Positions 24,992-28,566 are shown, counted from the first letter of the stretch. The stretch: DNA of 64,000 nt from Escherichia coli (GCF_003334815.1 NZ_QOWO01000002.1); one strand, 5' to 3'. Numbers and translations: made by a program. The notes: generated by a model not told the origin, from the letters alone.

Positions 24992-25140
24992 GACTCCTCC
25001 AGTGAGAAAATAGAGCAAAAAGATAAGTATAGATGCTGGAGGAGGGGCGATTTTAAATGAGAGGAATCTGGTGTGCCTCCCTTTCGGGTGAAAGGGAGGA
25101 AGGGATATTAAGCAGGTTGCTGACAACGTGCGGGCTTTTT

Positions 25141-25243
25141 TGCCGGATGCGGCGTGAACGCCTTATCCGTCCTACAAGTTCATGCAATTTTAATAAGTTG
25201 CCAGATATCCTGTAGGCCTGATAAGCGTAGCGCATCAGGCAAT
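25141..25243. repeat. REP pair between glnQ and ybiO
   Basis: TGCCGGATGCGGCGTGAACGCCTTATCCGTCCTACA ... TGTAGGCCTGATAAGCGTAGCGCATCAGGCA. Confidence 0.8.
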
Positions 25244-25251
25244 GTGTCTTA

Positions 25252-25974
25252 TTAAGAGACGTGCTGCAAAAATTCCTGCAAGCGCTGGCTCGGCGGGTTC
25301 TTGATCAACACCTGCGGATTGCCATCTTCCGCAATCCGGCCTTTGTCGATAAAGATCAGCCGCGAAGCTACTTTCTCGGCAAAACCGATTTCGTGGGTCA
25401 CGATCACCATCGTCATCCCTTCTTCAGCCAGATCCTGCATAACCTTCAGCACTTCATGGCGCAGTTCCGGGTCAAGAGCGGAAGTCGGTTCATCAAACAG
25501 CATCATTTTCGGCTTCACCGCCAGCGCGCGGGCAATCGCCACACGCTGCTGTTGACCACCAGAAAGTTCGGAAGGGTAGTGATGTGCACGTTCTGCCAGA
25601 CCGACTTTCGCCAGCAGCTCACGTGCCAGTTTTTCCGCCTCTTCTTTGTTCGCGCCACGCACGCGTAGCGGGCCAAACATGACGTTTTCCAGCGCTGTCA
25701 GATGCGGGAAGAGGTAAAACTGCTGGAACACCATACCTGCTTCCTGGCGAATCAGGCGCTCGTCAACTTTCGGATCGTTAACCTTCAGGCCATCGACAAT
25801 CAGATCGCCGGAGGTGATTTCTTCCAGTTTGTTGATGCAGCGCAGCAGGGTCGATTTACCGGAACCGGACGGCCCGATAATCACCACGACTTCGCCCTGG
25901 GCAATGTTCAAATCGATATTGTGCAGCACCTGGGTTGGGCCAAAGTGCTTGGAGACGTTTTTAAATTCAATCAC
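25252..25974 (-). CDS. glnQ: Glutamine ABC transporter ATP-binding protein GlnQ
   Basis: ORF track 240 aa; Walker [10 protein letters not shown], signature LSGGQQQR. Confidence 0.95.
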
Positions 25975-26630
25975 AGGATTTTCATCCTTCTTTCCAGACG
26001 ACGCAGAATAAAGCTCAGCACCAGGGTAATAATCAGATAGAACACCGCCACGGCGCTCCAGATCTCAAGGGCGCGGAAGTTACCGGCAATAATTTCTTGC
26101 CCCTGACGGGTCAGTTCCGCCACGCCGATCACAATAAACAGCGAGGTGTCTTTAATGCTGATGATCCACTGGTTACCCAGCGGCGGCAGCATACGACGCA
26201 GTGCCAGCGGTAAAATGACGTAGCGAATGGTTTCCCAACGTGAAAGACCGAGCGCCAGTCCTGCTTCACGAAAACCTTTGTGGATAGACAGCACCGCACC
26301 ACGCGTGATTTCCGCAATATACGCGCCGGAGTTGATCATGATGGTGACCACCGCCGCAGTAAATGGGTCGATGCGTAAGTCGTTAAACGCCATCGGCAGG
26401 GCGAAATAAATAAACATCACCTGGACGACGATAGGTGTGCCGCGGATCACTTCAATAAAGACCAGCGCGACGTGGTTGGCTATCCAACCTCCGAAGGTGC
26501 GTGCAAAACCTGCCAGCAATCCGATTACCAGACCGCCTGCCAGACCGAGGACCGAAATCCACAGGGTCATTTTGGCACCTTCAATCAGAAGCGGAATGGC
26601 AGGCCAGATGGCACTCCAGTCAAACTGCAT
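25971..26630 (-). CDS. glnP: Glutamine ABC transporter permease GlnP
   Basis: ORF track 219 aa; overlaps glnQ start. Confidence 0.95.
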
Positions 26631-26688
26631 ATGTTGTTCCTGTTACCGTGGTGTAAATAATCAAATTCAGGGTAATTAATGGCCCCGG

Positions 26689-26745
26689 AGCGGGTTTGCG
26701 CCCCTCACCCTAATCCTCTCCCCATAGGGGAGAGGGAACTGCCAG
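26689..26745. repeat. boxC-like intergenic repeat in glnH-glnP spacer
   Basis: GCGCCCCTCACCCTAATCCTCTCCCCATAGGGGAGAGGGAA: CCTCTCCCC/GGGGAGAGG inverted repeat, recalled as boxC family. Confidence 0.5.
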
Positions 26746-26768
26746 TGCGTTTTACAGGTGTAGCGTTA

Positions 26769-27530
<762 letters not shown>

Positions 27531-27569
27531 CTATCCACGGGACGATCCCCTGCGTGACATTCACATATA

Positions 27570-27586
27570 TGAAAAAATCGTGCCAG
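27570..27586 (-). promoter_or_regulatory. sigma54 (-24/-12) promoter glnHp2
   Basis: Reverse strand reads TGGCACGATTTTTTCA (GG...N10...TTCA) ~55 nt upstream of glnH. Confidence 0.7.
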
Positions 27587-27658
27587 TTTTGCAACTCCTT
27601 GATTTTTCGAGATGCGGCAAAAACGTGATGCACGATTTATAGGGCAATACCCTGAAGA

Positions 27659-27688
27659 TGCACCATTCTGGGGCACCAATCTGGTGCG
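27659..27688 (-). promoter_or_regulatory. Tandem overlapping NtrC (NRI) enhancer sites for glnHp2
   Basis: TGCACCATTCTGGGGCACCAATCTGGTGCG: two TGCACC-N-GGTGC-like dyads ~100 nt upstream of the sigma54 promoter. Confidence 0.7.
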
Positions 27689-27845
27689 CTAAAATTGTGC
27701 ACTCAACACAGTGATTATTTAGCGTAAAACCTGATGAAAAAACAATCTTTATGTAACGATTGTGTGATGATGTGGATACAAAAAATTTACTTAATCAGCT
27801 GGAGATAGCAGATGGATGCACTAAATAAGTGCGTTGAGGTGGGCT

Positions 27846-27879
27846 GCAAAACAAAACGGCCTCCTGTCAGGAAGCCGCT
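27846..27879 (-). terminator. Intrinsic terminator after dps
   Basis: Hairpin CGGCCTCCTG/CAGGAAGCCG followed on reverse strand by TTTTGTTTTG; 40 nt downstream of dps stop. Confidence 0.7.
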
Positions 27880-27918
27880 TTTATCGGGTACTAAAGTTCT
27901 GCACCATCAGCGATGGAT

Positions 27919-28566
<648 letters not shown>

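Follow-up and report, generated by a model that had tools for sequence, protein, structure and literature searches.

The 138-bp gap between glnH and glnP, in the glutamine ABC-transporter operon of Escherichia coli, contains a copy of the boxC repeat, and a steady-state RNA 3' end at position 26711 follows the hairpin of this copy. We consider it probable that the hairpin is a 3'-exonuclease barrier, which fixes a stable glnH-only mRNA end at 26711 and favours the glnH message over that of glnPQ. The repeat family has been known since 1992, and the mechanism we propose is the one usual for REPs. Three points are mildly new: the latest catalogue overlooks this copy, boxC hairpins can be linked through published 3'-end maps to defined RNA ends at several loci, and the gap behaves like a conserved slot for interchangeable hairpins beside an sRNA site. 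To our knowledge, the boxC family has so far been given no role at the RNA level; for about 30 years, it has been studied as a DNA triplex motif with no known function.

The boxC copy in the glnH-glnP gap

The window, that is, the whole 64-kb stretch of DNA analysed here, is 100% identical to E. coli K-12 strains in the segments queried, and, unless stated otherwise, its features described below lie on the minus strand. According to open reading frames and RefSeq annotation, glnH (26769-27515) encodes the periplasmic glutamine-binding protein, while the downstream cistron glnP (25971-26630) and glnQ (25252-25974) encode the permease and the ATPase, respectively; the gene order and the 138-bp gap (26631-26768) are thus as the preliminary description had them. 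Tandem in-frame stops, TAA TAA, are present at the end of glnH (26766-26771). Directly 3' of the glnQ stop, between glnQ and ybiO, there is a BIME of two inverted REPs (25142-25240), the first of which is GCCTGATGCGCTACGCTTATCAGGCCTACA, while the second starts with GTAGGACGGATAAGGCG and finishes with GCATCCGGC; a sub-threshold Rfam match to naRNA4 was also found here (36 bits, gathering score 59.5). The operon therefore closes with REPs, and boxC is used in its internal gap.

The TMECO triplex motif, BoxC (Bergler 1992), and the PIT element (Hoyne 2000) are the same repeat according to Holder et al. 2015 (PMC4666352), who published the strict pattern CCCTCNCCC-N3-6-GGGNGAGGG-N3-GGGNGAGGG and listed 23 MG1655 copies in their Table 1. 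We retrieved all 23 copies, every one of which is intergenic, and built a covariance model solely from them, excluding the glnH-glnP copy. In the 64-kb window, this model gave a single full-length match (model positions 1-76) at 26680-26756, with 48.8 bits and E = 4.9e-14. The match and the alignment with the 23 copies delimit a full boxC/PIT/TMECO unit, consisting of a 5' flank, a three-block core, and a 3' linker, and nearly coincide with the "boxC-like" repeat which had been proposed at 26683-26750. The flanks of the roughly 56-bp boxC unit were included in this comparison, which confirms the repeat as a genuine boxC copy, slightly degenerate and of type A. At the glnH-glnP junction, the copy is fixed in E. 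coli.

The core, CCCTCTCCCC-TAT-GGGGAGAGGA-TTA-GGGTGAGGGG, was located at 26701-26736 by a relaxed regular expression and by alignment to the Table 1 copies. It belongs to type A, which has TTA as its second loop, carries the G-rich strand in the mRNA sense, and differs from GGGNGAGGGNNNGGGNGAGGG by one mismatch. The glnH-glnP position (~847.2 kb in MG1655) is missing from the list of 23 copies, because block 2 reads GGGAGAGGA and the G-to-A change at its last base fails the strict pattern. At this base, Escherichia sp. E1V33 has the canonical G. Judged by sequence, eight of the nine triads are kept in the glnH-glnP copy, and one terminal triad is lost through the same change. Another boxC-like copy, CCCTCTCACCCTAACCCTCTCCCCGGTGGGGCGAGGGG, at MG1655 ~632050-632098 (plus), is also absent from the published list, indicating that the strict expression overlooks several degenerate copies, and BLAST with an 86-bp segment found a median of 13 places per E. 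coli genome. At permissive E-values, Rfam gave no meaningful match for the spacer, the only ones being chance matches (Antizyme_FSE and whalefall-1, E > 2). On the 3' side of the core, a 27-nt linker is followed by TTACCCT, where paired copies begin an inverted type-B unit. Compared by eye with five paired copies, the linker region is ~68% identical over 31 columns, which is suggestive only, and the glnH-glnP copy may be a truncated A+B composite.

The core contains a perfect 9-bp GC-rich hairpin with a 3-nt loop (26715-26735), formed by the inverted repeat CCTCTCCCC/GGGGAGAGG. In the RNA, the 5' arm occupies 26735-26727, the loop 26726-26724, and the 3' arm 26723-26715, while the mRNA strand of the whole core reads CCCUCUCCCC-UAU-GGGGAGAGGA-UUA-GGGUGAGGGG. 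No occurrence of the inverted-repeat pattern was found in 100 shuffles of the window. The hairpin RNA alone folds at -18.3 kcal/mol (z = -3.7) and accounts for 93% of the ensemble, none of 200 shuffles being as stable, and the entire 138-nt spacer has a fold z-score of -2.5. This energy is typical of the boxC family (-14.7 to -20.5 kcal/mol). The stem is followed by AUUAGGGUGAGGGG, and the tail in the folded RNA is AUUAGGGU, with no U tract. A GC-rich inverted repeat had been described as filling most of the gap; the inverted repeat is real, but of the 138 bp the repeat unit takes up ~77, and the palindrome itself is only 21 nt long. An RNA G-quadruplex of the G-rich strand was also considered and set aside: the hairpin ties up the first G-run, loops of 9, 3, and 14 nt would be needed, and the later G-runs lie beyond the end of the stable RNA.

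The RNA 3' end at the hairpin

In the Term-seq study by Adams et al. 2021 (PMC7815308, Supplementary file 1), the curated RNA 3' ends include one at MG1655 847200 (minus), with 30331.8 reads on the LB OD 0.4 sheet and 130459 on a second sheet. The position occurs three times in the file, as would be expected if it was recorded in each of the three growth conditions, and was seen on at least two condition sheets. Its flanking string is ACACCTGTAAAACGCACTGGCAGTTCCCTCTCCCCTATGGGGAGAGGATT-A-GGGTGAGGGG, in a format of 50 nt, the 3'-end base, and 10 nt, which we verified on the sgrS terminator row. With a window-to-MG1655 offset of +820489, derived from glnP coordinates, the end falls at 26711, so that the steady-state RNA finishes with ...GGGGAGAGGAUUA-3'. 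The assignment draws on the table of this one study. The end lies 4 nt beyond the last stem pair, 58 nt past the glnH stop, and ahead of block 3, and its peak is 34% and 19% of that of the neighbouring dps terminator on the two sheets. It was labelled "orphan" just because it is more than 50 nt from the stop codon (PMC7815308). Whether 3' ends map to the repeat had been posed as a check in the preliminary description, and the answer is yes. A stable hairpin with a mapped steady-state end a few nt downstream is what characterizes the class of 3'-end-protecting hairpins, and both are present here.

The same table links other boxC copies to RNA ends. Two other copies with perfect stems have Term-seq ends 4-5 nt past the stem, at 3781065(+) after lldD and 164636(+) after hrpB, respectively, and a copy with one stem mismatch has an end ~10 nt past the stem, at 632098(+). 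As well, boxC is housed between same-direction genes at MG1655 3908495-3908530 (pstA-pstB) and 4070452-4070487 (yihS-yihR), one of which is again an ABC-transporter operon; no Term-seq end is listed for these two copies in the conditions sampled.

Two further 3' ends from this table are close to the operon. One lies in the glnH 5' UTR at 27568 (MG1655 848057), 53 nt before the start codon, with 47250 reads on one condition sheet (Adams 2021), and is a possible premature-termination or processing site. The other is a strong end at the dps intrinsic terminator (a hairpin and GUUUUGUUUU) at 27851 (MG1655 848340), and a weak Rfam match to ctRNA_p42d at 27846-27881 is probably nothing but the hairpin of this terminator.

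A precise 3' end which adjoins a stable hairpin could also be produced by a partial terminator, which the preliminary description had suggested, or by an attenuator, working intrinsically or with Rho, NusA, or NusG, so that fewer polymerases would reach glnPQ. Many related genera carry in this spacer a hairpin and T-run resembling an intrinsic terminator, e.g., CAGGGGCGACCTTTCGCCCCTGTTGTTTTT, and REP325 has been reported to have partly Rho-dependent terminator activity (2026 preprint). However, an intrinsic terminator combines a GC-rich stem-loop with a U-rich tract within 0-2 nt, and the E. coli stem has no such tract behind it; a terminator scan of 25000-28000 found none on the mRNA strand in the spacer, the nearby matches being only plus-strand ones inside the 3' end of glnH. 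The distance of 4 nt between stem and end also differs from the ~8 nt (8th U) found at the sgrS intrinsic terminator in the same table. Moreover, the RNA just downstream is G-rich, not C-rich, and glnP translation starts 81 nt on, which leaves little room for Rho loading, and no Rho-termination region is listed near 846.7-847.2 kb (PMC7815308). In the summary given by PMC4666352, PIT elements were inactive as terminators in reporter assays (Hoyne & Maher 2002). In view of these points, the idea of a partial terminator does not hold up well, and we regard it as unlikely. A promoter scan of 25000-28000 found none, so an internal glnP promoter is unsupported.

Protection from exonucleases agrees better with the position of the end. 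Previous work described 3' ends directly after stable stem-loops without uridines as the signature of protection against PNPase and RNase II, which follows termination or cleavage further downstream (Dar & Sorek 2018). In our proposal of a 3'-exonuclease barrier, the perfect 9-bp GC hairpin would fold in the glnHPQ mRNA once the glnH stop codon has been passed by 58 nt, and would block 3'-to-5' exonucleases. Molecules could lose their downstream part as glnPQ decays, as the AU-rich distal spacer is cleaved, as GlnZ silences glnP, or as transcription occasionally terminates downstream; they would then be trimmed back and halted at the hairpin. The outcome would be a stable glnH-only mRNA ending at 26711, with more binding-protein message than permease/ATPase message. 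The end would accordingly come from exonuclease trimming rather than termination, and the hairpin would raise the glnH:glnPQ ratio. The genes glnH, glnP, and glnQ (b0809-b0811) are absent from the half-life supplements of Chen 2015, and a literature search on glnHPQ transcript structure returned nothing direct.

The glnA 3' UTR gives rise to the sRNA GlnZ, which pairs with the spacer immediately before the glnP Shine-Dalgarno sequence and so represses glnP (Miyakoshi 2022; Walling 2022). The pairing site, CACCACGGUAAC, is located at 26642-26653 according to these studies: to judge from the published mutagenesis primer glnPsal C-18G, the C that pairs lies within CACCACGGTAAC, and the complementary GUUGCCGUGG is present in the GlnZ 5' end. 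A computed duplex of GlnZ with the whole spacer was unrealistic and loop-filled and was discarded, the site being placed by the primer and direct complementarity. The glnP Shine-Dalgarno sequence, AGGA, can be read directly at 26638-26641. The GlnZ site and the glnP ribosome-binding site are about 60 nt further downstream and outside the repeat. About 50 nt separate the boxC core from the GlnZ site, and known regulation of glnP thus acts at a place distinct from the repeat. In Salmonella, a GlnZ pulse lowered glnP and glnQ by log2 2.25 and 2.14, respectively (>4-fold), and glnH was not in the list, a response that fits shielding of the upstream cistron by the spacer hairpin. The reading as an RNA-stability element, the other option of the preliminary description, thus agrees with the mapped 3' end, with the Salmonella response, and with the presence of a hairpin in every related species, which is described below.

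The gap among strains and species

Of 5426 complete E. coli genomes, 5402 carry the 86-bp segment at >=80% coverage. Both stem arms are invariant in seven divergent E. coli alleles and in Escherichia sp. E1V33 (eight sequences with little divergence), while the loop reads TAT, TCT, or GCC, and block 3 varies as well, with a G deleted in O157:H7, GAAGGG in EcPF18, and GGAG in E1V33. Small as the sample is, this variation fits selection on the Watson-Crick stem and not on a triplex. In about 20 of 5421 E. coli genomes, the locus is split at the repeat. In strain B2.3 (NZ_CM185023.1), the IS21-family element ISEc10 (istA, istB) is inserted inside the 5' arm of the boxC hairpin, corresponding to ~26723-26731 of the window, and parts glnH from glnPQ. 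It may be that boxC attracts IS elements or is fragile, which has been reported for REPs and suggested for TMECO.

The cassette that varies in the spacer corresponds to 26665-26761 and is exchanged for unrelated hairpins in other Escherichia clades and other genera. E. albertii and strain SCPM-O-B-8794 (NZ_JAATUR010000020.1), which is labelled E. coli, have a REP-like hairpin in the same gap, and the sequences of their hairpins are unrelated to that of the window. The three spacers have in common only TAACGCT at the 5' end and the last 34 nt, TTTGATTATTTACACCACGGTAACAGGAACAACAT, at the 3' end. In SCPM-O-B-8794, glnH shares 94.1% nucleotide identity with the window, and its 94-bp spacer with the REP-like hairpin was found in 0 of 5426 complete E. 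coli genomes; the strain probably belongs to a cryptic Escherichia clade filed under E. coli.

These rearrangements bear on a DNA-level explanation, according to which the three blocks fold, while the DNA is replicated or transcribed, as an intrastrand purine-motif triplex or H-DNA that affects replication, recombination, or local stability, the RNA hairpin being a by-product. In vitro, stable triplexes have been obtained with oligonucleotides of the family (CD, NMR, Tm 70-82 C), and rearrangement between strains is more frequent at TMECO loci. In the glnH-glnP gap, Escherichia clades differ by a swap of the cassette, and an IS element sits in the hairpin of strain B2.3. However, the triplex was not detected by in vivo DMS footprinting, the glnH-glnP copy has lost a terminal triad, and it is the Watson-Crick stem that is invariant while block 3 varies. 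Purine-motif triplexes do not form in RNA (introduction of Holder et al., PMC4666352), and the stable RNA stops before block 3. With a presence that is near-invariant over ~5400 genomes, the locus is not unstable here. A role as a DNA triplex is thus very unlikely for this copy.

Beyond Escherichia coli, a GlnH scan of one genome for each species yielded 80 Enterobacteriaceae loci. With the covariance model, boxC was detected in the glnH-glnP gap of only one of them, Escherichia sp. E1V33 (59.4 bits). A strong stem-loop is nevertheless present in the gap of all 80 species as well as in the window, with the best single hairpin at -13.7 to -38 kcal/mol, a count that overstates independence because the species are related. 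The spacers have a median MFE z-score of -2.6, with 57 of 81 below -2 and 79 below -1. Three 100-nt control segments from the same loci gave median z-scores of -0.50 upstream of glnH, 0.10 inside glnH, and 0.16 inside glnP, with 5%, 3%, and 1% below -2, respectively. The hairpins belong to several unrelated families: 39 of the 81 spacers have a REP-like hairpin, 22 a GGGGCG...CGCCCC hairpin (17 with a T-run), five a Klebsiella-type long hairpin and/or a CAGAGG hairpin with T-run, and two boxC, while 13 have others. Nearly all of the 80 species keep the GlnZ site with minor variation, and the motif ACAGGAAC recurs in most ortholog spacers, so that the last ~35-40 nt of the gap, with the GlnZ target and the ribosome-binding site, form a separate conserved segment. 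To judge from the spacers compared, what is conserved in the gap is having a hairpin, not the hairpin sequence, and the repeats beside the sRNA site appear to be interchangeable.

In Kluyvera, Lelliottia, Kosakonia, Klebsiella, and others, the T-run of the spacer hairpin stops a few nt before the GlnZ site, e.g., CAGGGGCGACCTTTCGCCCCTGTTGTTTTTGAACCACGGTAACAGGA. A hairpin and T-run which adjoin the GlnZ site look like an intra-operon intrinsic attenuator, and this may be the ancestral arrangement.

The repeat could also be a neutral or selfish copy in a permissive gap, with the 3' end as an incidental decay intermediate and the ratio set by translation efficiency, GlnZ, and general decay. Indeed, the 26711 end is no proof of an adaptive role, because any stable transcript hairpin stalls exonucleases. 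The boxC copies occur in all kinds of intergenic context without functional bias, the other 23 being mostly between convergent or unrelated genes, and the earlier tests of Holder et al. and of Hoyne & Maher gave no link between boxC elements and gene expression (PMC4666352). The hairpin energy is ordinary for the family, and the split loci, including the one caused by ISEc10, indicate that disruption is tolerated. REP-type repeats, too, may gather in such gaps by insertion bias and not by selection. On the other side stand the retention of the copy in nearly all complete E. coli genomes, the invariance of the stem arms next to variable bases, the strong hairpin in the same gap of every other species, unlike the control regions, and the abundance of the 3' end on at least two condition sheets. 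On this evidence, a purely neutral copy seems doubtful, though far from negligible.

Implications and comparison with known systems

If the 3'-exonuclease barrier is accepted, it would be the first concrete RNA-level activity for the boxC/TMECO family. It would also account for E. coli making more glutamine-binding protein than permease message from one operon, and suggest how GlnZ could silence glnPQ without destroying glnH mRNA. A broader reading, which we put forward as possible rather than probable, is that boxC copies, at least the transcribed ones with a perfect stem, form a second class of RNA 3'-end stabilisers like REPs, and that the gap is a selected "hairpin slot" refilled several times by terminator-like hairpins, REPs, boxC, or Klebsiella-type hairpins; the hairpin and the GlnZ site would together let glnPQ be silenced under nitrogen stress while glnH mRNA survives. 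As the gap keeps a hairpin and not a sequence, it is a clean natural case in which to ask whether interspersed repeats can be taken up as mRNA stabilisers and replace one another in that role. Otherwise, the biology is expected: a known repeat in the best-studied genome doing the usual job of stable transcript hairpins.

The glnH-glnP copy resembles the boxC family in its blocks (CCCTCNCCC-loop-GGGNGAGGG-TTA-GGGNGAGGG) with the type-A TTA loop, in its 5' flank (AAAAnGnGCnC...CAGT) and 3' linker, and in being intergenic and one of multiple copies in the genome. However, its stem is perfect, while a G/A mismatch is present in 13 of the 23 listed copies. Intrinsic terminators and attenuators likewise place a GC-rich hairpin in a short spacer, and the ortholog spacers of several genera add the T-run; the E. 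coli hairpin differs from them in lacking a U tract, in the end 4 nt after the stem, and in belonging to a family inactive in reporter assays. The ends described by Dar & Sorek 2018 share the stable stem-loop without following uridines and the 3' end immediately downstream. Unlike those, the glnH-glnP hairpin lies inside an operon, with no Rho-termination region reported downstream.

Single and not part of an inverted pair, the boxC hairpin is unrelated to REP/BIME sequences: the window spacer has no match to REP-like patterns or in Rfam, and the REP consensus palindrome (of the GCCGGATG...CATCCGGC type, usually with a GTAG/CTAC end) is absent from it. We know of no RAYT transposase and no IHF or gyrase association for boxC. 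REP elements between malE and malF reportedly stabilise the upstream mRNA, an observation ascribed to Newbury in 1987. The glnH-glnP gap shares with malE-malF and with the yjdMN operon an interspersed palindromic repeat just after the first, highly expressed cistron, a stable hairpin without U tract, and a transcript 3' end at the hairpin. In yjdMN, the cistron before REP325 is stabilised by it and the one after it attenuated (Harris 2026 preprint), and REP-like hairpins themselves occupy the glnH-glnP gap in nearly half of the spacers compared here (39/81).
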